Positions 680 through 60,149 of a stretch of DNA of 64,000 nt are shown here, piece by piece (within the stretch, counting starts at the first letter, position 1; every line of letters begins with the position of its first letter). This DNA comes from Eledone cirrhosa (Eukaryota): contig OZ024751.1 of the NCBI GenBank assembly GCA_964016885.1, positions 26,288,001 through 26,352,000 on the forward strand, in the 5' to 3' direction. A program made the position numbers and the translations under genes. The notes under the pieces were generated by a model that did not search any database, was not told where the DNA came from, and was given only the letters and a program-made list of their open reading frames with translations.

Positions 680-2561
680 TACCTATATAACGTATACATA
701 CATAAGCTGACAGTTACCTGTAACTACCAATATAAAGTATATACTCATACACAAACCGACAGTTATTATCCAGCGTGAACAAGTTCAAATGTATATAAGC
801 TATAACCAACAGGTGTTTCTCTAGTTAAACCGCTAGAAACAGTAGCCAAATCCCCCCTCACTGTCCCTCTTCATTGAAAATTGGAGACGTTGTAAGTGGA
901 TTTAATAAATGGAATACACCTGTCGTTTCCGACAATATTGGAACAACCTCTTCTATTTACCCCCTTTTGATACCAAACCCCCGGAAACCGACCTGGTCTT
1001 ACTATAGAAGACTGTTAGGTTTAAAATGTAGATACTTAAAAACCTTCCGCCATAATTTTATCTAAAAGCCTCTAAGTTCCAAATACCAGATTAATGGATA
1101 ACAAGTTATATTACTAAATTCCTCCAAATTTTTGATTATTTTCAAAATGATTTTAAAATCATAAGCAGAGTTTTTATATTGAGGGGAGGTGTGTGGCCTA
1201 GTGGTAAGGGTGTTGGACTTACGATCATGATGTCGTGGGTTCGATTCCTGTTGTGTTTTTGAACAAAACACTTTGTCAGTATAGTTGGGGTTTTAGCTGT
1301 GATGTCCCGGGGGAAAGTTTTGTACTCTCAGTCGAAACAGGGAGTCTGCCTCAAGCCTTATCACCACCAACAACAACAGTTTAGCCTTTGCATCAGAAAT
1401 ATGGCAATGAAATGACCACATATCTTTTCAAAAACCTTCCATGGTCAGGTTAAGCTTGTTGAAGATATCTGACGTATTATTTATGGTAGCCAAAAAATGA
1501 ATTTGGTTCCCTTTGAATATTATAGGGTCCCTGCCTGCAACTCCATCAGTCGCCTTTCTTTTAAGCTGCCATCAACATTTGTTTCAGACCGAGATCTGGT
1601 TAACCTCAGAAGCATAACTACACCCTAGACTTTATTTCCTCGTAACTTTCTTAATAATCAATAGTTATTAACATTTTATCGATACGTTTTCGAGTGTATA
1701 TTATGATTGATGAAAATGAACCCCCCACCAAAGCACACTTATTAGGGCTCCCTCGTCGACTAGTGTAATGAAACTGGTGAATCGGACGAGTTATTTTCTT
1801 TTTCTTCAAACGAGATCTTTGTCTCTGACTCTCGTTGAAGTTTATATCTAAATTACCTTATCACCACCAACAACAGTAACTCAGCCATAGACACGTGCTC
1901 TACCATCACCATTTATCCATACCTAATTATACCTGAACTACTTCACCCTACTTTCTCGTCTTTCCACCCCTCCACCTGTCTTTTCTTATCTCTTTTCCCT
2001 ATCTTTAATGCAATTATATGATAGGATATATATATATATATATATATGTGCTCTCATCCCCTTCCTTCGATATCAACAGGAAGTGCTTCTTTCCTTTCGC
2101 CCGTCCATCCGGTTTTAGAGGCGTTAACAGCTCTCATCACTACCGTCGTTACCAGCACCACCACACGTTACCACCACCACACGTTACCACCACCACACGT
2201 TACCACCACCACTATCACAATACGTTACCACCACCACCACCGCCACTACTTTTATCATTATCACCATCACACACCCTTATAGCCATGATACCACTTTAAA
2301 TAAATTATTCAACATATTCATAAACTAATGAAAGAACCTGATAACAACCAAATTAGCAATAATTTTTACTTGTATATATATATATATATATCGTTGTACA
2401 TGTGTATATATACTGTCGTAATGTCTATATACTGTTGTACATGTGTAGATACTGTCGTAATGTGACAATAAACTGTTAATTAGTGAAGAATTTTGAGGTA
2501 TTTACTAAATTTATAATTTCATTACTAAGACAGTAATTTAACATATGGTTCTTATATAAAA

Positions 2562-3204
2562 CTAGCTGGCCCCGTGCTGTCAAAAATGACGGCTAAATGT
2601 AATATCTATACATAATATAAAAAAGATGTTTGATACAACCACACCCCCTCCTTCCTCAGTCGACGTTATCACCTTTCCTTCCTCAGTCGACGTTATCACC
2701 CCTTCCTTCTTCAGTCGACGTTATCACCCTTCCTTCCTCAGTCGACGTTATCACCCTTCCTTCCTCAGTCGACGTTATCACCCCTCCCTTCCTCAGTCGA
2801 CGTTATCACCCTTCCTTCCTCAGTCGACGTTATCACCCCTTCCTTCCTCAGTCGACGTTATCACCCCTTCCTTCCTCAGTCGACGTTATCACCCCTTCCT
2901 TCCTCAGTCGACGTTATCACCCCTCCTTCCTCAGTCGACGTTATCAACCCTTCCTTCCTCAGTCGACGTTATCACCCTTCCTTCCTCAGTCGACGTTATC
3001 ACCCCTTCCTTCCTCAGTCGACGTAATCACCGCTTCCTTCCTCAGTCGACGTAATCACCCCTTCCTTCCTCAGTCGACGTTATCACCCCTTCCTTCCTCA
3101 GTCGACGTAATCACCCCTTCCTTCCTCAGTCGACGTTATCACCCCTTCCTTCCTCAGTCATCTCTACACGCTATGGACATACACACAGCTATTATATTAG
3201 TAGA
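2562..3204 (-). mobile_element. Non-autonomous Helitron (family A) with internal ~27-bp tandem array
   Basis: On the minus strand it starts TC(TACTAATATAA) and ends CTAG, between host A and T with no TSD; imperfect subterminal hairpin gctgtca-aaaa-tgacggc. Confidence 0.75.
2648..3160. repeat. ~27-bp minisatellite (cttccttcctcagtcgacgttatcacc)
   Basis: About 19 near-identical units inside the Helitron. Confidence 0.95.
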
Positions 3205-3433
3205 TTATGTTGGAAGATTCAAATTTAAACAGACTGATTATATTTCATAAAAACTAGGGATAGTCTTGACTGGGGATTCACAGCTACACTAAATGTATGT
3301 TTATTGTACATTAACATATTACATATGGCATTATATACCATTTTATTGTTTCTGAATCACGCTGTCTCGGTTTTATTGTTAATACAAATGTTTGTAAAGA
3401 CAGGGTATATATTCCACCTTTATTACACCATAT

Positions 3434-3515
<82 letters not shown>

Positions 3516-3972
3516 ATTACAAACACGCCCTTAACACATACACACCTTTATAAACATGCTCTCATACACATACACACATACACGCCCTCACACACATGCT
3601 CTCATACACACCGTTTCACACCCTTGCATGCACACACACACACATGCACACACACACACATGCACACACACACACATGCACACACACACACATGCACCCT
3701 TACAAACATACACGCCCTCACACACATACACAATCTCATACGCCTTCACATAACATTGCACACACATACATACATAGACACACATACATACATAGACACA
3801 CACACACACACACATACATAGACCCCCCATCCCATCCCCTCGGTGGGGGTAACATTTCCATGAAGCACTGTTCCCCCTCTCCCTCCCTGATAACATTTCA
3901 ATGTAGAAACTAATCCTATATCAAGATGACTGTCAAATGTTATTCCTGAAAACTATATGACCAGTTACACAT

Positions 3973-4960
3973 GGTGGTGGTGGTGGTGGAGGTGTGATTG
4001 CAGCGGTGATGGTGGTGGTGTGGTTGCAGCGGTGGTGGTGGTGTAGTGGTGGTGGTGGTGTGATTGCAGCGGTGATGGTGGTGGTGGTGGAGGTGTGATT
4101 GCAGTGGTGGTGGTGTAGTGGTGGTGGTGGTGTGATTGCAGCGGTGATGGTGGTGGTGGTGGAGGTGTGATTGCAGTGGTGGTGGTGGTGGAGGTGTGAT
4201 TGCAGCGGTGATGGTGGTGGTGTGATTGCAGCGGTGATGGTGGTGTGGTGGAGGTGTGATTGCAGTGGTGGTGGTGGTGGAGGTGTGATTGCAGCGGTAG
4301 TGTAGTGGTGGTGGTGGTGGTGTGATTGCAGCGGTGGTGGTGGTGGTGTGATTGCAGCGGTGATGGTGGTGGTGTGATTGCAGCGGTGATGGTGGTGGTG
4401 GTGGTGGAGGTGTGATTGCAGCGGTGATGGTGGTGGTGGTGGTGGAGGTGTGATTGCAGCGGTGATGGTGGTGGTGGTGGAGGTGTGATTGCAGTGGCGG
4501 TGGTGGTGGAGGTGTGATTGCAGCGGCGATGATGGCAGTAGTGTAGTGGTGGTGGGGGTGTGATTGCAGCGGTGATGATGGCGGTAGTGTAGTGGTGGTG
4601 GTGGTGGTGGAGGTGTGATTGCAGCGGTGATGATGGCGGTAGTGTAGTGTAGTGGTGGTGGGGGTGTGATTGCAGCGGTGATGATGGCGGTAGTGTAGTG
4701 GTGGTGGTGGTGTGATTGCAGCGGTGATGATGGCGGTAGTGTAGTGGTGGTGGTGGTGGTGTGATTGCAGTAGTGATAATAGTGATTGTAGTGGTGATGA
4801 TAGTGGTGGTGTTGGTGGTGATGGTGGTGGTGGTGTGATTGCAGTAGTGATAATAGTGTGGTTGCAGTGGTGATAATGATGGTGGTGGTAATACTGGTGT
4901 TGATGGTGATGGTGTTGATGGTGCTGATGGTGCTGGCAGTGATGCTAATGCTAGCTTGTG
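3973..4960. repeat. GTG-rich compound minisatellite
   Basis: Recurrent gtgtgattgcagcggtgatg separated by (GTG)n. Confidence 0.9.
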
Positions 4961-5218
4961 GTTGTGTAATGGCAGTGGTAGAATATAAGGATTTAATGAA
5001 AGATTAGCGTTCGGAACAAAAAAAAAAAAAATTTTTTATTCCATTTTAAATATTATCAAAGACTGAAGGGAAAGTAATTAAGTTAATTATATTTCTGTAT
5101 ATTTAATTAATGAGACAATATCATCACTAATACTTCAGCAAGTTAGGCTGAAGAATTTCAATAATGCTGAAACCTGTCCAGATTTATCTCTCATATTTCT
5201 CTATGACTGACAAGAAAT

Positions 5219-5253
<35 letters not shown>

Positions 5254-5544
5254 TAAGAAGTAAGAATGGCGCTGTGTTGTAAATATTATTTAGAAAACGT
5301 GAGAGAAACACAAGGACAATTCTTGCACATCAACTGTCTTCTGTGGATCACTGAAGTTTCAATCACATAAATATATACATATATATATATTATATAGGGG
5401 AAAATGAAGAAATCGACGAAAATGCAACTGGAGTCTTTTTGTATAAAAATATATTTATTTGGTTCCTTTACCGGTTTCGCAGTTCTTCTGCTTTTCAAAA
5501 TTAGATTTGAGATGGAGGCTTTGTGGTTTTTCTCACACATATAT

Positions 5545-5875
5545 ATTATCATCATTTTACGTCCGCTTTTCCCTGCTTGCAAGGGTGGGACGGGAACTGA
5601 TTCTGGCTTGATTTCTACAGCTGGATGCCCTTCCTAACACCAACCTCATTTACAGTGAGTGCTGGGTGCTTTTTTCCGTGGCACCTACACGACCACTTTA
5701 CAGTGGAATGATATGGACCCCAGTCCCTATCATCTCAATTTTACAGCTGAGTAAACTGGAGCAATGTGAAATAAAGTGTCTTGCTCAAGGAAACAACACA
5801 TCACCTGGTCTGAGAATTGAACTCACAACCTTTCGATTGCAAGGTCAATGCTCTAACCACTAAGCCATGTGCCTC
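5545..5875 (-). mobile_element. tRNA-derived SINE with RTE-like (GAT)n tail
   Basis: A box tggcttagtgg and B box gagttcaattc on the minus strand; near-identical to 25942-26270 and 51712-52050. Confidence 0.85.
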
Positions 5876-5891
5876 TCTCTCTCTCTCTCTA

Positions 5892-6062
5892 TAATAAGCA
5901 GCACAATATAATTATTCCATTACCCAAGGTTTCACAGAATTAGATGATTCTAACAGAAACGTCTAGTTCGTTCATCAGATATTTTATAACATAATTAAAT
6001 AGCTCTGTACTATACATTGAGCACTCTTCTCTCCTTTGCCTTTTCTACGGAAATACTTAACA
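5892..6062. mobile_element. Penelope-like pLTR remnant (family 4) with hammerhead core on minus strand 5921-5978
   Basis: Minus strand CTGATGA-ACGAACTAGA..TCTAATTCTGT-GAAACCTT; plus-strand tail ends at (TA)n; related to 45291-45495 and 17155-17220. Confidence 0.6.
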
Positions 6063-6086
6063 TATATATATATATATATATATATG

Positions 6087-6430
6087 AGAGACGGTTTTAT
6101 TTGTGCATCTTCATTTTATTACATAATTCTATTATATGTATTTCAAAGATGTCAGTGGTTGTATGATACCTCTTTGGCATGTTTTCACCATATAGTGTAA
6201 GGTGTATTTTCCTACCTATTGATATGTTACTGGTTTCTTGTGTTGTTTACATCGCTGACCAGTACCCATATGGAATTATGTGATAAAATGAAGATGTACG
6301 AATAAAACCGTCTCTCTTATTTATTATATTAAAACTCCGGTTGATACCTTACAGAGAAAATCCTAAGGAATACAAATCGTTGAGTGCTTTACGTCTGTTT
6401 GCAAAACCAACTTTCATCAACTGAATAATA
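6087..6430 (+). mobile_element. (TA)n-flanked element with ~45-bp inverted arm, Penelope-like architecture
   Basis: gagagacggttttatt..acataattc (6087-6130) is complementary to gaattatgt..aaaaccgtctctc (6273-6318); no clean ribozyme core. Confidence 0.45.
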
Positions 6431-6439
6431 TATATAATA

Positions 6440-7013
6440 CTAGCAGTGGTACACGGCGTTGCACAGGATAAGGTATTGTGAAATATATAACCACCTTAGC
6501 TAAGCTTAGTATTGCCACAACCACGGCTGGCAAAGAAGTAAGGGTCTGGTGGTACGCAAGTAAGCAACACTGTGGCTTAAAACGTGAGGAAGAAGTTGTG
6601 TGCACTTACCAACTGTTTGGGGAATGAGTGTGAGATTTGTCTTGAGCAAGGGTGGCAGAATAACCGGAGGCAGCAGACAGACAGACATACAGACTAATAT
6701 TATAAGGGCGCGTTCTGGACGCAGAGCGAATTGTAGGAAGTGACGTAATGCAGACATACAGACAGATATTATAAGGGCGTGACGTAATATGTATGTATCT
6801 ATCTAAAAAGAGAAAGACCAAGAATTATAGAGAGAGATCGCTAAATCGCCTAATGCGATTGAAATTTGAAATTTTTTTTGCTCATAACACTCCCTGAAAC
6901 ATAAGTATTACATGTGTAAAGTTTGAAAACAGTCAGTTTGGTGTTTCTCTAGTTTTAGGGATTCAAACTCACACACACACAGACAGACATCCTCAGTTTT
7001 ATATATATATAGA
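6440..7013 (-). mobile_element. Non-autonomous Helitron (family B)
   Basis: Minus strand TCTATATATA...CTAG termini, A|T target; terminal ~110 bp shared with 8933-9787. Confidence 0.75.
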
Positions 7014-7740
7014 TATATATCTCTCTCTCTCTATATATATATAGATATATATCTCTCTCTCTATATATATATATATATATCTATATATATGTAAATGATA
7101 AACAGAAATAACAACACAATCGGTACAGTATATGGAAGGTATTTATTAGCTTAACGCTTGATATAGCAGTCCTTATTTCTAGTTTTATGATATCAAATAC
7201 AATTATCCAGAATTTATATTTTAAATGTATATTTAGTTATTTTAGCAAATATATAAAAATAATTTAAAGTAGAGAAAATTAAGAAATGCTTTTTTTTTTC
7301 TTTTGAGAATAGTTATAAAAACTATATTTAGAATTTGTATTTAAATATTTTAACCAATAAATAAAAATAGTTTAAACTACAGAAAATCATTAAATACTTT
7401 CTTATTCCATAAAACAAACAATTATTAAGCCTTTATATTTAGAATTTCAATTTGTATCTTTCAGATTTTAGAAAAATATGAATGACTATTATTTTCATGT
7501 CTTCTCTGACTACATTTAGCTGTACACCTTTTCAGAATAACTGCTCAGGGCAAATATATAAATATAATTACAGGTTTTTAATTATAAGCCTTGCTGTGAA
7601 AACGATGAAGTGTAAACACACTTTTTATTATTCCCTCTCTACACAAAAACAAAATTTAAATAAATATAGGGGACCACTGGTCAAAGGATTCAGTCAAATC
7701 TCAGTATCTTTTGACACATTCTTCATTCAATTATATATTA

Positions 7741-7926
7741 CCATATTATACTTGAATATAAGCCAAAGAATATGTGACCAAAAAAATCAATGGTAAAATA
7801 AGGGAAGTGATATGCCATCTAAACAGTGTGTTGATTTGCTGCCTTGGCTTATAAATGGGGGTGAGTTTTGGGCCCATCTCTCAGACGTAAAATAGAGGAG
7901 TCGGCTTATATTCAAGTATAATACAG
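7741..7926. mobile_element. Tc1/pogo-type MITE
   Basis: TIRs ccatattatacttgaatataagcc / ggcttatattcaagtataatacag with TA on both sides; relative at 53564-54043. Confidence 0.7.
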
Positions 7927-8932
7927 TAGTTGGATGGCACCAGATTCTTCTAGTCACTTCTAGAAATGTCATGAGCAATCCCATAACTATTTGCTGAGAC
8001 ACAAATTCATTTGTGTCTCAAAGAACACATAAACCCCTACCACTACACCTATAATGAAGAATTATCAAAATATAATAAAGAAATAACAAAACATGGAATG
8101 GTAATTAAGAGAACTATTCATAGATGGCAGCACTTTAATTTGGAGGGGGAAAAGTATTTTATTTTTATTTATTTATTTATTTTTTTTAGAATTAATGTAA
8201 AATTAAATGAAGAATTTGTCAAAAGATGATGGAATTTGTACCAATTGTCAGAACAGTACTTCCCAACTTGAACTCTTTTAATAACATATTTTTAATGAAA
8301 TACATCACCACCACCACCACCATTGCAACCATCACCACCATTATCACCATCATCACCATCATCACCATCACCATTATCACCATCATCATCACCATCATCA
8401 CCATTATCACCATCATCATCATCATCACGATCATCACCATCACCATTGCAACCATCATCGTCATTTAATGTCTGCTTTCCCTGAGTCAGTACTGAAGCGA
8501 GGCTACTGACCTCCGGGATGGACCAGATGTTCATATCTCACTTATATACAGCCCCACGCTCTACCAGATACATTTTATCATGGTACCAGCACTACAGAGG
8601 TTGTCATGTCCTTGACACAGGTCCTACCAACAAAATACACCGTATTTCATTTAATTAATGAGGAAGTTGACTAAATTTATTTCTTGGCAGAATTGGTAGT
8701 GTCGGGGAACAGGCTTTGCAGCATAGAGTTGCGGCCCTCTACATTCTGAGTTCAAATCCCACCAAAGTTAGCTTTGTCTTTCATCGTAACGGGGTCAATA
8801 AAGCACCAGTAATACACTGGGGTTGATTTAATCGACTTTCCCTTCCCCTTCAAATTACTGGCCTTGTGCCTAAAGTAGAAATTATTAAGATGGTATTTGT
8901 AGCATAATGTAATACAAGGTTCTTATAACAAA

Positions 8933-9787
8933 CTAGCAGCAGGACCTGGCGTTGCACGGAGTAGGAAACGTGAAATAGCAACATGCATATGCAAAGATTG
9001 AGGAATGTAGCTGTGTATATTTTGAATTCCCTTATCTTATTCTCAGGGAATGATTGAGGAGCGACGTAGTGAATTGTGTGAAAACCATGTAGGGATGTAC
9101 GTTTAAGTAGGGATATTGAGATGACGAAATCAGCATGGCAACGCAGCTGCAACAGAAGGGGGTCATAGTGCAATTAGCACAAACGCTGGGCAGCACTGGT
9201 TGCACTGCGTTTACACAGCAACAAAGGTGCAACAAAAGGGGTCACCGCGGAATTGGCACAACTGCTGTCCGGCGTACTTTCGCAGGACGTTCATACTGCG
9301 GTGTAGGTGCAACAAAAGGGGTCTTAGTAGAAGTAGGACAGACATGAGTTTTACGGTGTCAATGACACGCCAACGTACACAGAGCTCGGATTTGCGCGTG
9401 ATGAAAGCACGAAGTGTCAACAGGGTGCCGACAAATTTTGAGGTCCTCCTTAGTGGTCATGTTTAAAAGTAAGTGTTGTGTCCTCTGTTAAATAAACCAA
9501 ATTTTTAACGAAATATTATACGCTACTTACAATGTTTAAGTAGTGTTTATATTGAAAATGAAAATGGCATGTAATGCCCAATGCTAATTCGTAAATTTCC
9601 TAGAAACCATTAAGTTATGCCTCAAAAAAACCCTAGGACAGAAAAAGTTAAATTCTTTTTTTAGCCCATTGCACTTCAAGCAATATAAGTAACGCATGTG
9701 TAAAGTTTGAAAAAAATCGGTTTGGTACTTCTCGAGTTTTAGGGATTTACACAGACAGACGGACATCCTCTGTTTTATATATATAGA
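8933..9787 (-). mobile_element. Non-autonomous Helitron (family B)
   Basis: ctagcagcaggacctggcgttgcacgg at one end and cagacagac..ttttatatatataga at the other; A|T insertion with no TSD. Confidence 0.78.
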
Positions 9788-10860
9788 TTATATTGGAAGA
9801 TTATAATGTAAATAGGAACTCTTTAAAATTGCTTCTTTTGTTTCAAAAGCCAGACGTAGTTTTTAGTAGGTTGCTATCAAAATGTGGTTTTTTAATACAA
9901 AACTGGCTCAGGTTCTATGATACATAGCTGTATACTTTAAAGTATTTATGTTTATCTAAAATCCTTCCTTCATAATGTTTATATAAGAATATTTGTTAAG
10001 TTTATAGGATATAAGATGACTAGTTAGGAAGTTGGTTAGTTGTTAAGTGTCATTGACATTGAATTATGTCCCAATAGTAGCCAAAATAATGACCTCTCTA
10101 TAGCCCTCCTTTATTTAACTCTTGTCATATAAAACACCCAAAACTGATCTTCATTCTGTAATACTAAACTGTTTATAGTGTTATATTTATCTAGAAACCT
10201 CTTATTATAATACAATGTAAGAACCTTTAAGTTATGTTCCAGCTTATTAATGAGGAAGTTATAATTCTAAGTCCTTCAAAATTAAGGTTAAAAGCAGTAG
10301 TGAGATTTGTCTGCTATTTCTAGCAGGTTGTGTTAGTACATAGACATCCACATTGGTTTGTCCAAATTTTTGATAATTTTCAAAATTATTTGAAAATAAT
10401 CCGTGTTAGTGTCTATCATTATACTAACAGAAGGGTTCTAAACACCAGTTTAATGGTGGTAGGTTACTAACAATATAATGGTAGGTTACTAACAATATAA
10501 TGGTAGGTTACTAACATTATAATGGTAGTTACTAACATTATAACAATAACTGTTAATTTCCACAATATAATAGTATTGTGTCATATACTTAGGTTTAAAC
10601 AATAACCTAGTTTCTAGATTATTGTAGGTGAAGTTTTAAGTAGAACACAGTTGTCCATCTCACCAGGGGTTAGGGTTCATTATAGTGGTGGTGATGGTGG
10701 TGGTACTGTTGTAGTGCTGTTGGTGGTACTGTTGTAGTTGGTAATGGTGGTGGTACTGTTGTAGTTTTTGGTGCTGGTGGAAGGGGACAAGTGATGACAA
10801 AATCAAAAGAGAGGGTGGAGTTCATTCCAAAATACTGAACTGTCTATGTTTTTGTCTCGT

Positions 10861-27596: not shown

Positions 27597-28383
27597 AACT
27601 GGGATAAACACCGACCCAATGAGCCCTAGACTTAACTGGGATAAACACCGACCTAATGAGCCCTAGACTTAACTGGGATAAACAGCAACCTAATGAACCC
27701 TAGACTTAACTGGGATAAACACCGACCTAATGAGCCCTAGACTTAACTGGGATAAACACCGACCTAATGAGCCCTAGACTTAACTGGGATAAACACCGAC
27801 CTAATGAACCCCAGACAGACTTAACTGGGATAAACACCGACCTAATGAGCCCTAGACTTAACTGGGATAAACACCGACCTAATGAGCCCTAGACTTAACT
27901 GGGATAAACACCGACCTAATGAACCCTAGACTTAACTGGGATAAACACCGACCTAATGAACCCTAGACTTAACTGGGATAAACACCGACCTAATGAGCCC
28001 TCGACTTAACTGGGATAAACACCGACCTAATGAACCCTAGACTTAACTGGGATAAACAGCAACCTAATGAACCCCAGACAGACTTAACTGGGATAAACAC
28101 CGACCTAATGAACCCCAGGCTTAACTGGGATAAACACCGACCTAATGAGCCCTAGACTTAACTGGGATAAACACCGACCTAATGAACCCTAGGCTTAACT
28201 GGGATAAACACCGACCTAATGAACTCTAGACTTAACTGGGATAAACACCGACCTAATGAACCCTAGGCTTAACTGGGATAAACACCGACCTAATGAACCC
28301 TAGACTTAACTGGGATAAACACCGACCTAATGAGCCCTAGACTTAACTGGGATAAACACCGACCTAATGAACCCCAGGCTTAA
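27597..28383. repeat. 37-bp minisatellite at a SINE 3' end
   Basis: aactgggataaacaccgacctaatgagccctagactt x ~21. Confidence 0.95.
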
Positions 28384-34776: not shown

Positions 34777-36219
34777 CCCACTCCCAAGCTTGAGCCTAAT
34801 ACCTAACACCTTTCGTAACTGTACTCCTTGTTGTTTTAACTTTTCCAATATATATTTATATATATGGACACATATCACACATACAAATACACACATACAA
34901 ATACACACTCATACAAATACACACATACAAATACACACACATACAAATACACACTCATACAAATACACACATACAAATACACACTCATACAAATACACAC
35001 ATACAAATACACACTCATACAAATACACACTCATACAAATACACACTCATACAAATACACACACATACAAATACACACACATACAAATACACACACATAC
35101 AAATACACACACATACAAATACACACTCATACAAATACACACTCATACAAATACACACTCATACATATTACAGAGTGGTGGCTGAGTGAAATGAAAATAT
35201 GAGAGGAGGGGATACTGAAAGAATTCATAATCTTCCAAAAAATCCAACACCACCACCACTGTCTCTCTACCAACACCACCACCACCACTGTCTCTACCAC
35301 CACCAACACCACCACCACCACTGTCTCTCTACCAACACCACCACCACCACTCTACCACCACTGTGTCTCTACCAACATCACCACCACCACCACCGTCTCT
35401 ACCACCACCACCACCACCACCACCACCACCTCTACCACCACCACCACCACCATCAAACAGACCCTCCTATCTCCCCACTAAAACTGGTGAAGTAGAAATA
35501 TGAAATGAGGTCATATGTGGTGACATAGTTCTGGCAGTGGCCAGGCTGAGAGTGTAACTATATATATATGTGTGTGTGTGTGCGCGTATGAGACGTGTGT
35601 GTGTGCGTGAGACGTGTGTGTGTGCGTGAGACGTGTGTGAGTGTTTTACTGTGTTTTTTAGTTATTTTGAGCTCATTTATGACAATCCAGCTATGACCAT
35701 CTTCATGCTTAAGCTTTAAAGTTCTAATTTATGATGGGCATCTGCACAGTTTCTGTCTACCAAATTTCAAATGCCAAGGCTTTGATCAATCAAGATACTT
35801 GCCCAAGGTACCACTCATTATAATTCAATCCCAAATGACACAGTTGTGAAGTGACCTTACCAACATTGGACACTGTCATGTGTTGTCCAGACCACACTGG
35901 ACACTGCAGTGTCTAGTGTGGTCTGGACATGACATGGTGGTGTCCAGTGTGGTCTGGACATGACATGGTGGTGTCTAGTGTGGTCTGGACATGACATGGT
36001 GGTGTCCAGTGTGGTCTGGACATGACATGGTGGTGTCCAGTGTGGTCTGGACATGGCATGTGTGGTTTCAGGTATTAGACTGCGACCATATTGGAGCAAT
36101 GCTGTGAACATATTTCATTGATAATATTGACTCCAGTATGTCTTAGTCACATGCCCTCTTTTTGACAGGATTTCTATAGCCAGTTACCCACCCCTTTACT
36201 GGGCTCATTGTATCATGAC

Positions 36220-37495
36220 ACTAGCACTACCACATTACAGAGTGGACTGGGAGTATAATACACCTTCACTACCACTTTACAGAGTGGACTGGGAGTATTT
36301 TATTGTGACACCAGCACTACCACATTACAGTGTGTACTTGGAGTATTATACACCATCACTACCACTTTACAGAGTGGACTGGGAGTATAATACACCTTCA
36401 CTACCACTTTACAGAGTGGACTGGGAGTATTATACACCATCACTACCACTTTACAGAGTGTACTTGGAGTATTATACACCATCACTACCACTTTACAGAG
36501 AGTACTGGGAGTATTATACACAAGCACTACCACTTTACAGAGTGTACTGGGTGTTTTATACACAAGCACTACCACTTTACAGAGTGTACTGGGAGTATTA
36601 TACACCATCACTACCACTTTACAGAGTGTACTTGGAGTATTATACACCATCACTACCACTTTACAGAGTGTACTGGGAGTATTATACACCATCACTACCA
36701 CTTTACAGAGTGTACTGGGTGTTTTATACATAAGCACTACCACTTTACAGAGTGTACTGGGTGTTATACACAAGCACTACCACTTTACAGAGTGTACTTG
36801 GAGTATTATACACCATCACTACCACTTTACAGAGTGTACTGGGAGTATTATACACAAGCACTACCATTTTACAGAGTGTACTGGGTGTTTTATACACAAG
36901 CACTACCACTTTACAGAGTGTACTGGGAGTATTATACACAAGCACTACCACTTTACAGAGTGTACTGGGTGTTTTATACACAAGCACTACCACATTACAG
37001 AGTGTACTGGGAGTATTATACACCATCACTACCACTTTACAGAGTGTACTTGGAGTATTATACACCATCACTACCACTTTACAGAGTGTACTGGGAGTAT
37101 TATACACAAGCACTACCACTTTACAGAGTGTACTGGGTGTTTTATACACAAGCACTACCACTTTACAGAGTGTACTGGGAGTATTATACACAAGCACTAC
37201 CACTTTACAGAGTGTACTGGGTGTTTTATACACAAGCACTACCACATTACAGAGTGTACTGGGAGTATTATACACCAGCACTACCACTTTACAGAGTGTA
37301 CTGGGTGTTTTATACACAAGCACTACCACTTTACAGAGTGTACTGGGAGTATTATACACCAGCACTACCACTTTACAGAGTGTACTGGGTGTTTTATACA
37401 CAAGCACTACCACTTTACAGAGTGTACTGGGTGTTTTATACACAAGCACTACCACTTTACAGAGTGTACTGGGAGTATTATACACAAGCACCAGT
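36220..37495. repeat. 42-bp minisatellite
   Basis: caagcactaccactttacagagtgtactgggagtattataca x ~30. Confidence 0.97.
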
Positions 37496-37599: not shown

Positions 37600-39675
37600 T
37601 ATATATACATACTGTGTAGCTATATATACATACTGTGTAGCTATATATACATACATGTGTGGCTATATATACATACATGTGTGGCTATATATACATACTA
37701 CTGTGTGGCTATATATACATACTACTGTGGCTATATATACATACATGTGTGGCTATATATACATACTACTGTGGCTATATATACATACTACTGTGTGGCT
37801 ATATATACATACTACTGTGGCTATATATACATACTACTGTGGCTATATATACATACATGTGTGGCTATATATACATACGACTGTGTGGCTATATATACAT
37901 ACTACTGTGGCTATATATACATACTACTGTGTGGCTATATATACATACATGTGTGGCTATATACATACTACTGTGGCTATATATACATACTACTGTGTGG
38001 CTATATATACATACTACTGTGTGGCTATATATACATACTACTGTGGCTATATATACATACTACTGTGGCTATATATACATACTACTGTGGCTATATATAC
38101 ATACATGTGTAGCTATATATACATACTACTGTGTGGCTATATATACATACTACTGTGGCTATATATACATACTACTGTAGCTATATATACATACTACTGT
38201 GGCTATATATACATACTACTGTGTAGCTATATATACATACTACTGTGTGGCTATATATACATACTACTGTGGCTATATATACATACTACTGTGTGGCTAT
38301 ATATACATACTACTGTGGCTATATATACATACTACTGTGTGGCTGTATATACATACTACTGTGTGGCTATATATACATACTACTGTGGCTATATATACAT
38401 ACTACTGTGGCTATATATACATACTACTGTGGCTATATATACATACTACTGTGGCTATATATACATACTACTGTGGCTATATATACATACTACTGTGTAG
38501 CTATATATACATACTACTGTGTGGCTATATATACATACTACTGTGTGGCTATATATACATACTACTGTGTAGCTATATATACATACGACTGTGGCTATAT
38601 ATACATACTACTGTAGCTATATATACATACTACTGTGTAGCTATATATACATACTACTGTGTGGCTATATATACATACTACTGTGGCTATATATACATAC
38701 TACTGTGGCTATATATACATACTACTGTGTGGCTATATATACATACTACTGTGTGGCTATATATACATACTACTGTGTGGCTATATATACATACTACTGT
38801 GGCTATATATACATACTACTGTGGCTATATATACATACTACTGTAGCTATATATACATACTACTGTAGCTATATATACATACTACTGTGGCTATATATAC
38901 ATACTACTGTGTGGCTATATATACATACTACTGTGTGGCTATATATACATACTACTGTGGCTATATATACATACTACTGTGTGGCTATATATACATACTA
39001 CTGTAGCTATATATACATACTACTGTGTGGCTATATATACATACTACTGAGGCTATATATACATACTACTGTGTGGCTATATATACATACTACTGTGGCT
39101 ATATATACATACTACTGTGGCTATATATACATACTACTGTAGCTATATATACATACTACTGTGGCTATATATACATACTACTGTGTGGCTATATATACAT
39201 ACTACTGTGTGGCTATATATACATACTACTGTGGCTATATATACATACTACTGTGGCTATATATACATACTACTGTGTGGCTATATATACATACTACTGT
39301 GTGGCTATATATACATACTACTGTAGCTATATATACATACTACTGTGGCTATATATACATACATGTGTAGCTATATATACATACTACTGTGTGGCTATAT
39401 ATACATACTACTGTGGCTATATATACATACTACTGTGGCTATATATACATACTACTGTGTAGCTATATATACATACTACTGTGTGGCTATATATACATAC
39501 TACTGTGGCTATATATACATACTACTGTAGCTATATATACATACTACTGTAGCTATATATACATACATGTGTGGGCTATATATACATACATGTGTGGGCT
39601 ATATATACATACATGTGTGGGCTATATATACATACATGTGTGGGCTATATATACATACATGTGTGGGCTATATAT
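37600..39675. repeat. 22/24-bp minisatellite, ~2 kb
   Basis: ggctatatatacatactactgt(gt) units. Confidence 0.97.
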
Positions 39676-39973
39676 ATATCTGTTTCTATAACGATATAAA
39701 ATGGCTATATTCCTCTATGTTCTAGAAATCTCTTCCGCTTGTTTATTCAGTCTTTTCATCTGTGTTAGGCAGAATATATATATATATATATATATATATA
39801 GATATAGATAGATAGATAAATATACACGGGTGTGTATGATTGTGTATAGAAGATTATATAAATAGAGGAATTCCAACTTTGTCTGATTTACTCGTTTTAT
39901 TTACAATCCTTTAAAATATATAATGGTATTATAATGAAATAGTATGGTAGAATATTAAATTCTAAGTGTTAAT

Positions 39974-42797: not shown

Positions 42798-43738
42798 TTT
42801 CAGCTCTGTGTATTCTGAGTTCCAATCATACTCCTTATCACTAAACCTTTCCAATCTGGCCAACCCCAGCTCTAGTTCTATATCACTAAACCAGCCATAT
42901 CTCTCACCTCTTTCTGGTCAAACCAGCTGTAACCAGCCACTCATACTGATGTTAACGTTTTGTTCTCAAAATAAATATCAAAACCTCATAGACTCAATAT
43001 GTGAGATAAAGCCTTTACCACGTAAATACAATAGTATATATAATGTGAATGTTAAAGGGTTAAACGGTTCCTAATTTAAATTCAAATCTTCCAACATAAT
43101 TTTATATAAGAACCATGTTAAGTTGTTACCCTAGTAAAGGAAGGATTAATAATTTTAGTACTCCCTCCCCCCCAAAAAAAATAATTAATTGAAATAAAGT
43201 ATATATTGGAAATACATTTGTAAAAGGATTAAATTAAAATCTTCCAACATATTTAAATCATATATTAAGTTACTAGCTTAGTAATGAATTAATTAATAAT
43301 TTTAGTAAGTCCCCTAAAATTCTTCATTAATTAATTGAAATAGATTGTATTTCATTAGAAATACTGCCACGGAAGGTTCAAAACCTCCTGTGATTACTTC
43401 TGAGCAGGTAACCTTGGTGAGCTTTGAACTCAGATTGTAAAGGGCCGTAACTCTGTGTCACAAAACCTGTCCAATGCTCTACCGCTTCAGCCAATCTACC
43501 ACCTACCTTATATATAATTGTTTCTACCTTAGGCACAAGGCCAGCAATTTGAAAGGGGGAGGGGAAAGTCGATTAAATCAACCTCAGTACATTACTGGTA
43601 CTTTATTTATCGACCTCGCAAGGGTGAAAGGCAAAGCTAAACTTGGCGGGATTTGAACTCAGAATGTAAAGGGCCGTAACTCTTACGCCACAAAGCAAGG
43701 TGTCTGACGCTCTACCGATCCTCCGCCCTCATGATCAA

Positions 43739-49756: not shown

Positions 49757-49864
49757 GTAAGTTGATGAAATTGAACATAATCTGGGGCAGCAAATAGGCA
49801 GAATTGTTAGAGTATCCGACAAAATACTTTGATATTTCTTCCCTTAGCTTTTTTTACCATGAGT

Positions 49865-51320
49865 TCAAATCCTGCCTGAGTGTAGTGGGAGTGGACCACA
49901 CCAGTTGGAATGGTTATTCCATGTCTCAAATCCTGCCTGAGTGTAGCGGGAGTGGACCACACCAGTTGGAATGGTTATTCCATGTCTCAAATCCTGCCTG
50001 AGTGTAGCGGGAGTGGACCACACCAGTTGGAATGGTTATTCCATGTCTCAAATCCTGCCTGAGTGTAGTGGGAGTGGACCACACCAGTTGGAATGGTTAT
50101 TCCATGTCTCAAATCCTGCCTGAGTGTAGTGGGAGTGGACCACACCAGTTGGAATGGTTATTCCATGTCTCAAATCCTGCCTGAGTGTAGTGGGAGTGGA
50201 CCACACCAGTTGGAATGGTTATTCCATGTCTCAAATCCTGCCTCAGTGTAGTGGGAGTGGACCACACCAGTTGGAATGGTTATTCCATGTCTCAAATCCT
50301 GCCTGAGTGTAGTGGGAGTGGACCACACCAGTTGGAATGGTTATTCCATGTCTCAAATCCTGCCTGAGTGTAGTGGGAGTGGACCACACCAGTTGGAATG
50401 GTTATTCCATGTCTCAAATCCTGCCTGAGTGTAGCGGGAGTGGACCACACCAGTTGGAATGGTTATTCCATGTCTCAAATCCTGCCTCAGTGTAGTGGGA
50501 GTGGACCACACCAGTTGGAATGGTTATTCCATGTCTCAAATCCTGCCTGAGCGTAGCGGGAGTGGACCACACCAGTTGGAATGGTTATTCCATGTCTCAA
50601 ATCCTGCCTGAGTGTAGTGGGAGTGGACCACACCAGTTGGAATGGTTATTCCATGTCTCAAATCCTGCCTGAGTGTAGTGGGAGTGGACCACACCAGTTG
50701 GAATGGTTATTCCATGTCTCAAATCCTGCCTGAGTGTAGTGGGAGTGGACCACACCAGTTGGAATGGTTATTCCATGTCTCAAATCCTGCCTCAGTGTAG
50801 TGGGAGTGGACCACACCAGTTGGAATGGTTATTCCATGTCTCAAATCCTGCCTCAGTGTAGTGGGAGTGGACCACACCAGTTGGAATGGTTATTCCATGT
50901 CTCAAATCCTGCCTGAGTGTAGTGGGAGTGGACCACACCAGTTGGAATGGTTATTCCATGTCTCAAATCCTGCCTGAGTGTAGTGGGAGTGGACCACACC
51001 AGTTGGAATGGTTATTCCATGTCTCAAATCCTGCCTCAGTGTAGTGGGAGTGGACCACACCAGTTGGAATGGTTATTCCATGTCTCAAATCCTGCCTGAG
51101 TGTAGTGGGAGTGGACCACACCAGTTGGAATGGTTATTCCATGTCTCAAATCCTGCCTCAGTGTAGTGGGAGTGGACCACACCAGTTGGAATGGTTATTC
51201 CATGTCTCAAATCCTGCCTGAGTGTAGTGGGAGTGGACCACACCAGTTGGAATGGTTATTCCATGTCTCAAATCCTGCCTGAGTGTAGCGGGAGTGGACC
51301 ACACCAGTTGGAATGGTTAT
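49865..51320. repeat. 61-bp homogeneous tandem array
   Basis: tcaaatcctgcctgagtgtagtgggagtggaccacaccagttggaatggttattccatgtc x ~24. Confidence 0.98.
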
Positions 51321-51711
51321 TTCAACATGTCTCCTTTTCCATCCTCTGGAACGTTTTCTCCATTCTGTCTACTGGGACCATGAGGCAGCCAGCACATGGG
51401 TTCCCCCACACACCATCTGGGACCTCGTCATTAGGATAGCGATGTTATGAAGGTCCTCTTCAGAATAAAACTGTAGTTATGTTGGAATTAGTGCAGTAAG
51501 TTGCCATAGTTACAATAAATATAAAGATCCCATAACTCCTTCTGGAGTCGTATATGTATATGTCTCTCAGCTGGAACACATAATATAAATATATATATAT
51601 ATATATACATACATACACGTGTACATATACACAATGCTCCATTGTCACCACCATCATTACAGGGTATTGCCCTCATTTAATGGTAAAAAGAATGAGTGGA
51701 TATATATATGG

Positions 51712-58904: not shown

Positions 58905-60149
58905 GGTTAGTATCAAACATGTTATCTTTAAAGCAATTTTTAAATCTATTCTCTTTTACTGCTTTCTCTATATATACACACATACGCGTGTGATGACAAT
59001 GAAAAGTTCCATCACACACCCCAATATAGAATTCAGAATATTGCTGGACCTTATGATCACAATCCAAATACTCAAAGCCTCACCTCTCTCCCCATGTTCT
59101 TGTAACACTTTTGAAAAGAGTTATTTTTGCTAAAATATACCGGGTTAAACCAGCTTTCTTTTAAGTTACAATACTTCTCCAACTTATTTCTGAGATGGTC
59201 GTTGGGATAGAGTCCTCAAACACTCCTTCCAGCTGGATCCCTAAGACCAGCCAAGCTCATGGATGTTATCCAACCATCTTGCTTGGAGTCTACTGCCGCT
59301 TGTAAAATCTTTCCTGAGACATTCTAACCACATGCCCGTGGTATCGGAGCTGTGAAAACTCTACCTGGAGTGACTCTCTGGTCTCCGAGTTACACACTCT
59401 ATTGAGTAACATTACTCCAAATACCCTTCGAAGGAACCCCATTTTGGCTGCTTTTATTCATTATCTTTCGGTCATTACCCAAGATTAACAGAAAAACCAC
59501 GCTTTGAATTGGGTGGTTTTTCTGCTAGTATGTGTAGTGTGTATATTGATATTATACGCAGGTATATATGCATGTAGATATGATAAATCAAATAAAATCG
59601 TAATTGACAATATAAACAGAAATTGAAGAGAGACTGTGTTACACTGTCTTCTGTAACGTAATCCATGATACATTAAAAGACGATATTATATATAAACTGC
59701 ATTAGGAGAAAATTAGTGACGGAAATATATGAATGTTTATTTAAGCGATCGCCAACCGGAAGTGTTGACATTTGAAAATTTTAAAGAAGTGACTCTATAA
59801 ATAAATAAAATATTTAATGAACAGCCACAAAATTTAGTAGATAAATTATGTAATATTCATTCATTATTTATTCAAAGTAATGATTGTGGATTGGCAGTAT
59901 CGGTAGAGGGTCGGACGCCATGCTTTGCAGCATAGTTATGTCCCTTTGCGATCTGAGTTCAAATCCTGCCGAGGTTGACTTTATTTTATCGACCCCGTAA
60001 GGCTGAAAGGCAAAGTACCAGTAATGCACTGGGTAATTGCTGGCCTTGTGCCTAAAGTAGAAACAATTATTTATTCAAAGTAATCCAACTTATTTTACTA
60101 ATGGGATAAAAAATTATAAACTATACAGTCCTGCGCTTCTTACTTTATT

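Follow-up and report, generated by a model that had tools for sequence, protein, structure and literature searches.

The 64-kb stretch analysed here, referred to throughout as the window, comprises positions 26,288,001-26,352,000 of contig OZ024751.1 in the 3.0-Gb genome of Eledone cirrhosa. It contains two Helitrons, inserts A and B, which occupy the same base in two copies of a dispersed host repeat and in the same orientation, together with a third copy of the repeat in which this site is uninterrupted (Table 1). An earlier sequence-only reading had drawn attention to this arrangement, and its coordinates prove exact: removal of 2562-3204 and of 8933-9787 yields the junctions it described, and the uninterrupted 32-mer is found without mismatch at 43116-43085 on the minus strand, with the site at 43100|43099. 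The second host-like copy that it suspected nearby does exist, at 43223-43377 on the minus strand, with the main site lost. Here, we find that the shared site is probably the result of independent landings guided by a one-sided motif, A^T-N5-ATAA, on the 3' side of the element, likely read by the RepHel transposase on the target strand just past the cut.

Read on the minus strand, inserts A and B both start with TCTA and finish with CTAG, giving the 5' TC and 3' CTRR of Helitrons, and both lie between A and T with no target duplication, the rejoined flanks matching the empty site. Canonical Helitrons are further defined by a 3' hairpin 10-15 nt before the end (PMC11417382, in its text). The 3' ends of the two window copies fold no better than shuffled sequences (z of -0.77 for A and +0.99 for B); a stem of 6-7 bp forms at the hairpin position (-4 to -7 kcal/mol) in the commonest family B, C, and D ends and in one end of family A. 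By their termini and insertion sites, inserts A and B are classed as canonical non-autonomous Helitrons (HLE1). They represent different families, as had been claimed, since a blastn comparison of insert B with the window gives no match in insert A. The elements themselves are ordinary, and it is the sharper target rule that is of note.

The host consensus, built from aligned empty copies, is 240 nt long, starting TTAA-CCCTTT and finishing AAAGGG-TTAA, with TTAA at both ends and the short inverted repeats CCCTTT...AAAGGG inside it. Among 22 full-length copies (median identity to the consensus, 81%), the strict terminal pattern is retained at the 5' end in 13, at the 3' end in 12, and at both in 8. 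TTAA ends with short terminal inverted repeats from CCC are the signature of piggyBac-type MITEs (miniature inverted-repeat transposable elements), which share with the host the TTAA ends, the short inverted repeats from CCCTTT and the lack of coding capacity. Judged from its sequence, the host is an old, approximately 240-bp MITE of this type with no coding capacity; the repeat can therefore be classed, contrary to its initial description as unclassified, and no named family could be matched to it. In genome samples taken at even spacing and totaling 1 Mb, a host profile gave 17 matches, and 12 of these extend across the site; the genome as a whole holds tens of thousands of copies. Compared pairwise, family C inserts are for the most part 80-93% alike, a divergence that is compatible with an older host and no proof of it.

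On the plus strand, both filled sites in the window read TTAT, five free bases, and A, followed by the CTAG of the element, which is A^T-N5-ATAA on the element's 3' side. We examined this spacing at exact ends of five families across the genome: 2,148 for family C (copies with C at flank position -15 excluded), 703 for F, 646 for D, 170 for B, and 8 for A. In family C, TTAT-Nk-A is present at 14 ends with N4, 535 with N5, and 171 with N6. Background AT sites carry the motif at 1.55%, 0.81%, and 1.25%, respectively, which gives enrichments of 0.4, 31, and 6. Family F has N5 at 113 and N6 at 68 of its ends (20- and 8-fold), counts that overturn an N6 preference seen in four flanks. In family D, N4 is found at 76 and N5 at 46 ends (7.6- and 8.8-fold), and N4 spacing characterizes 12% of family D versus 0.65% of family C (chi-square p=1e-67). 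Among 100 listed family B ends scored by eye, 1 had N4, 17 had N5, and 8 had N6. Once microsatellites and tandems are removed, the 3' flank is most informative at +7 to +11, with 0.4-0.7 bit (n=61, noise 0.03), and no position of the 5' flank beyond -3 exceeds 0.19 bit (n=28, noise 0.07). The flanks of other copies, which the sequence-only reading proposed to compare, are not random AT sites, and most of these copies lie outside this repeat. The (TA)n arrays that hold many copies also present ATA at the motif positions. Because empty hosts carry the motif, it belongs to the target. Two host copies with an internal tandem duplication of approximately 130 bp have the box of the second unit one base nearer the AT (N4).

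The genome-wide search for empty and filled sites that had been suggested was carried out. We counted 754 exact matches to the empty 30-mer (reversed control, 0) and 4,588 to the 15-base left flank followed by T, which represents the empty site (control, 52). The same flank followed by CTAG occurs 32 times (control, 1). Of 30 such loci retrieved, 26 contain an insert, two of these being one tandem duplicate, and 4 are host variants; the remaining 2 matches are also Helitron ends, bringing the filled sites to 28 of 32. A right junction within 1.5 kb was found for 13 of the 30. The 3' ends at the host site fall into 10 single-linkage groups, indicating at least 10 kinds at one base, and family A itself is present at this base again in a second, unrelated host copy. 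When the right junction was searched in the window orientation, 35 matches were obtained (control, 1), and about 15 of the 30 examined by eye are Helitron 5' ends on host sequence, 10 of them with a left junction found by script; the other examined matches are host variants or chance. The opposite orientation gave 2 matches (control, 2), neither of them in a host, and a single orientation is therefore what we observe.

Filled fractions were counted for CTAGC(A/T)G-type ends. The main site, at consensus position 137, is filled in 19 of 4,607 copies (0.41%; confidence interval [CI], 0.25-0.64), and the average AT in about 0.005% (at least 12 ends per Mb). The proposed single-orientation hotspot is accordingly real, at about 75-fold above the average AT. 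Across the genome, about 2,406 of 1.13 million TTAT-W5-AT sites are filled (0.21%), so that the motif accounts for about 40-fold. These data strongly suggest that the insertions are independent and that the motif explains most of the excess (~40 of ~75-fold).

The host offers a second site. Each strand of its consensus contains 28 ATs. The motif itself is present only twice, at positions 92 and 137 of a single strand, and the use of site 92 was predicted from the consensus ahead of the search. Nine matches were recovered near site 92, of which six are at that base, one is at an N6 variant, and two are non-elements; none of the nine is at the three neighboring ATs. Near site 137, 11 of 14 matches are at the site, 1 lies two bases on in a variant host, and 2 are outside the host, with none of the 14 at the ATs 5 and 7 bases upstream. 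Site 92 is filled in 4 of 1,324 copies (0.30%; CI, 0.08-0.77), a rate similar to that of site 137 (Fisher p=0.8). What the sequence-only reading took for a preference for the repeat itself is better described as one instance of a genome-wide spaced motif, with most copies of these families elsewhere.

Other repeats likewise carry several Helitron families at one base. Another dispersed repeat, ending in TTTATATATAA, has three different families at one base, and its 10-base flank end recurs in the family F flank lists. Two same-base pairs of different Helitron families were observed in further repeats, and one of these repeats is similar to the 5' end of a Helitron. At four further loci, a spacer of three bases (TAA at three of the loci) links the 3' end of one Helitron to another Helitron's 5' end and places ATA at +7 to +9; these junctions could be motif-guided insertions or mobilized dimers. 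Among 100 listed family D ends, about 15 join a family D 5' end exactly, head to tail. Head-to-tail arrangements of dissimilar Helitrons have been described (PMC2267711). Chimeric Helitrons, with a family D 3' end and the 5' end of another family, were seen at three loci.

We considered whether the pattern reflects DNA shape or easy melting of an A/T tract one turn long beside the nick, and not base reading. All favored letters are A or T, (TA)n arrays are much used, and AT-rich melting has been proposed as the source of the single-stranded substrate (text of PMC4778049). However, a shift of one base drops the family C enrichment from 31 to 0.4, while family D reaches 7.6 at the same N4 spacing (p=1e-67). 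A property of the DNA alone would not vary by family, so this explanation is unlikely.

Somewhat less probable still is that Helitrons are steered to the MITE as such, through a longer sequence, a bound protein, or chromatin, in the way that Dada and Tx1 elements are directed to multicopy targets. Tx1L, for instance, inserts repeatedly at one multicopy base in Tx1D, with most copies at the target. The occurrence of at least 10 kinds of 3' end at one base, and the filling of the main site at about twice the rate of the average TTAT-W5-AT site, would fit such steering. Against it, the main host site is absent from 100 listed flanks each of families C, B, F, and D (the family C list covering the first 162 Mb of contig C1), and only one of eight family A flanks, the window's own, is at the host site. 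Family C was seen once at the exact host flank, with 0.53 expected from the motif alone, and none of 30 motif-flanked ends examined is at a host site, other repeats recurring there instead. In none of families C, B, F, and A do most of the listed copies sit at one multicopy target, as they would in a Dada- or Tx1-type system, and dedicated MITE targeting is rejected because nearly all copies of these families are elsewhere.

The alternative named in the sequence-only reading itself, that flanks and insert form one composite copied as a unit, is highly improbable. Identical junction positions and near-identical 30-base flanks speak for it, yet the inserts are of unrelated families or differ in length. 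We built a tree from 11 empty hosts and 19 of the 21 filled ones after rejoining, the other two filled loci having been set aside for a doubtful right junction. Its support is weak, with only 2 of 27 inner branches strongly supported, and the filled and empty labels change 9 times, against a shuffled mean of 9.1. Filled hosts are at most 90% identical to each other, the two in the window 74%, and just 4 short pairwise matches were found among the outer flanks of 21 loci. With filled hosts forming no clade and sharing no single common insert, movement as a unit is rejected. Equally hard to credit is that the motif is part of the element, by 3' read-through or microsatellite growth: Helitrons can carry 3' flanking DNA (text of PMC4778049) and TA arrays adjoin many 3' ends, yet thousands of empty hosts carry the motif letter for letter and the five bases of the spacer differ freely from one filled site to the next, and this origin is likewise rejected.

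We return to guidance by the spaced motif and to how it might operate. In the published model, as given in the legend of Fig. 7 of PMC4778049, transposase tyrosines nick the single-stranded target and the circle, and strand transfer follows. RepHel would accordingly nick the target at A^T during integration, and the target strand starting with that T would be held like the element's own 5' end (T-C-T-A...ATAA). Drawn from this nicking model, such holding is a real possibility to which we give slightly less than an even chance. It would account for the one-sidedness, for the fixed orientation, and for each transposase having its own register (N4, N5, or N6). The 5' ends of families A, B, C, and D start with T after A and have an ATAA or TTAA box at 9-13.

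Several observations weigh against guidance by the motif or against this account of it. In families B, C, and D, the box of the element's own 5' end lies three bases away from where the target has it (10-13 or 9-12, compared with 7-10 or 6-9), and none has been established for family F, whose 5' end is not fixed; for both reasons we carry the mapping of 5' end to target box as a working proposal only. The exact N5 motif is present at just 16-25% of family C, F, and B ends, and many ends lie in (TA)n, which makes it a preference and not a rule. The third Helitron in the window, of family C, is without it, family A flanks are few (N5 at one, N6 at two, and N7 at one of six), and one filled site 92 copy has TTAC in place of TTAT. 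The main site holds 19 inserts where the genome-wide motif rate predicts 9.8 (p=0.006), a two-fold residue that could be explained by site age, finer sequence preference, or chromatin. In addition, the 1 Mb used as background draws too heavily on the four largest contigs, which supply 72 of its 100 pieces and make up 54% of the genome, and old insertions have been reshaped by later mutation and microsatellite growth.

For de novo insertions of Helraiser, the text of PMC4778049 reports AT as the target, with an AT-rich tendency over about 20 bp that is most pronounced on the element's 3' side. The target is stated as AT only in the texts of PMC13286980, PMC11417382, PMC6544945, PMC4588551, and PMC3789558, and that of PMC12001565 adds nothing further on target sequence. 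In the literature text searched, we found no description of a spaced, family-specific Helitron target motif. A phased, one-sided motif with family-specific spacing thus appears, without certainty, to be new relative to the published "AT, AT-rich 3' side." Helraiser and Helibat1 (HLE1) resemble the elements described here in starting with TC and ending with CTAG, in entering between A and T with no duplication, in the 3' AT-rich bias, and in head-to-tail tandems; their 3' hairpin has a counterpart in the stems of the commonest family B, C, and D ends and of one family A end (texts of PMC4778049, PMC5876387, and PMC11417382). They differ in that the Helraiser text gives an AT-rich bias only, although its logo (Fig. 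5a) may show more, whereas here a phased ATAA at +7 to +10, with a spacing that depends on the family, fixes base and orientation in a repeat. The wheat Xuan-Feng Helitrons also insert de novo at AT, with logos from 49 and 86 sites, and are compared here by the text, which names the AT dinucleotide only (PMC13286980).

Helitrons have been contrasted with the site-specific IS91 and IS608 (texts of PMC5876387 and PMC10288648). IS91 and the IS200/IS605 elements share with the present system HUH chemistry, the lack of duplication, orientation specificity, and the use of one side of a short target; their target is contiguous, short, and site specific, whereas here the box lies five bases off the cut, is found at no more than a quarter of copies, and is associated with a eukaryotic RepHel (same sources). 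Dada, according to the text of PMC3706591, likewise inserts repeatedly at one base of a multicopy sequence, with most copies at the target in contrast to well under 1% here. Activity of piggyBac, MITE, and Helitron elements has been reported in Octopus vulgaris (PMC13282606, in its text).

RepHel genes are abundant in the genome, a search with PF14214 having given 150 scored matches out of 3,704 candidates. Among five RepHel loci examined, none was an autonomous partner for the ends of A or B, and one has a Rep domain enclosed by family D ends, its own 3' flank showing ATAA at N4 spacing. A 10-kb locus (C2:315524001-315534000) contains an apparently intact autonomous Helitron with 5' TCTA at 803 and 3' CTAG at 7502 and a frame of 1,718 amino acids with STPR repeats and Rep and PIF1 domains. 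On contigs C16, C19, C20, and C27, near-identical RepHel matches are clustered at intervals of ~100-200 kb, which points to large segmental arrays.

The features of the window are collected in Table 1. The profile search detects 11 host MITE pieces in it, and host copy 1, when rejoined, is 86% identical over 118 nt to the host consensus/profile (nhmmer, blastn). The core 8-mer of the minisatellite unit in Helitron A occurs 0-26 times per copy across nine family A copies. The family C Helitron lies between A and B in TA-rich DNA, outside the host MITE. Two filled sites in a 64-kb window are expected in about 0.2-4 of 46,810 windows, so the pairing of A and B needs no special cause. The repeat that splits host copy 2 is presumably related to short interspersed nuclear elements (SINE-like); three independent host copies, the one in the window included, carry its tail 35-45 bases ahead of the main site, and there is perhaps a second hotspot near host position 90 for this repeat. 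At ~59480-59620, we also observe a fourth, decayed Helitron-like 3' end with a long palindrome, of a family seen at three other loci. Long minisatellite arrays occupy 27597-28383, 36210-37491, 37600-39676, and 49800-51330, with units of 37, 42, 22/46, and 61 bp, respectively.

Table 1. Helitrons, host MITE copies, and associated repeats in the 64-kb window
Feature	Position	Strand	Basis or remark
Host MITE copy 1, part preceding insert A (consensus ~48-137)	2476..2561	+	nhmmer and blastn against host profile
Target motif of insert A, TTAT-N5-A on +, equal to ^T-N5-ATAA 3' of the Helitron CTAG end	2552..2561	-	Also in empty copy
Insert A, family A non-autonomous Helitron, 643 bp; 5' TCTACTAATATAAT, 3' palindrome and CTAG	2562..3204	-	Termini; 8 copies with exact 20-nt terminus
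Minisatellite within Helitron A, 28-bp unit, 18.7 units	2642..3159		
Host MITE copy 1, part following insert A	3205..3274	+	nhmmer/blastn to host profile
Third Helitron, family C (ends related to B)	6440..~7013	-	5' boundary approximate
Host MITE copy 2, 5' piece (consensus 24-87)	8627..8681	+	Host profile
Abundant dispersed repeat splitting host copy 2	8713..8887		>20 blastn matches in window
Host MITE copy 2, part preceding insert B	8894..8932	+	Motif TTAT-N5-A at 8923-8932
Insert B, family B non-autonomous Helitron, 855 bp; 5' TCTATATATATAAAAC, 3' decayed hairpin and CTAG	8933..9787	-	170 copies fit terminus pattern
Host MITE copy 2, part following insert B (to consensus ~234)	9788..9883	+	Host profile
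Empty host MITE copy, with the site uninterrupted at 43100|43099	43061..43231	-	32-mer and profile match
Neighboring host MITE copy, main site deleted	43223..43377	-	Profile match

The usual account of Helitrons is insertion at AT and little else. A phased, one-sided, family-specific motif, if true, would make target capture, the least understood step of Helitron transposition, testable by single-base shifts. The motif would also explain the orientation-fixed recurrences at the same base, and it bears on the use of Helitron presence or absence as homoplasy-free markers; such recurrence also bears on the reading of nested elements as composites. The MITE serves here as a natural reporter, as its thousands of empty copies show the sequence before insertion. 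More tentatively, and with less confidence than we place in the holding of the target strand, Helitron transposases in general may be sequence-reading integrases, each reading a box at a fixed, enzyme-specific distance 3' of A^T through its 5'-end-binding surface. If this is true, target choice, orientation, stacking on Helitron starts, and same-base hotspots would all follow from one rule, which would be predictable from the 5' end of the element, and tunable.

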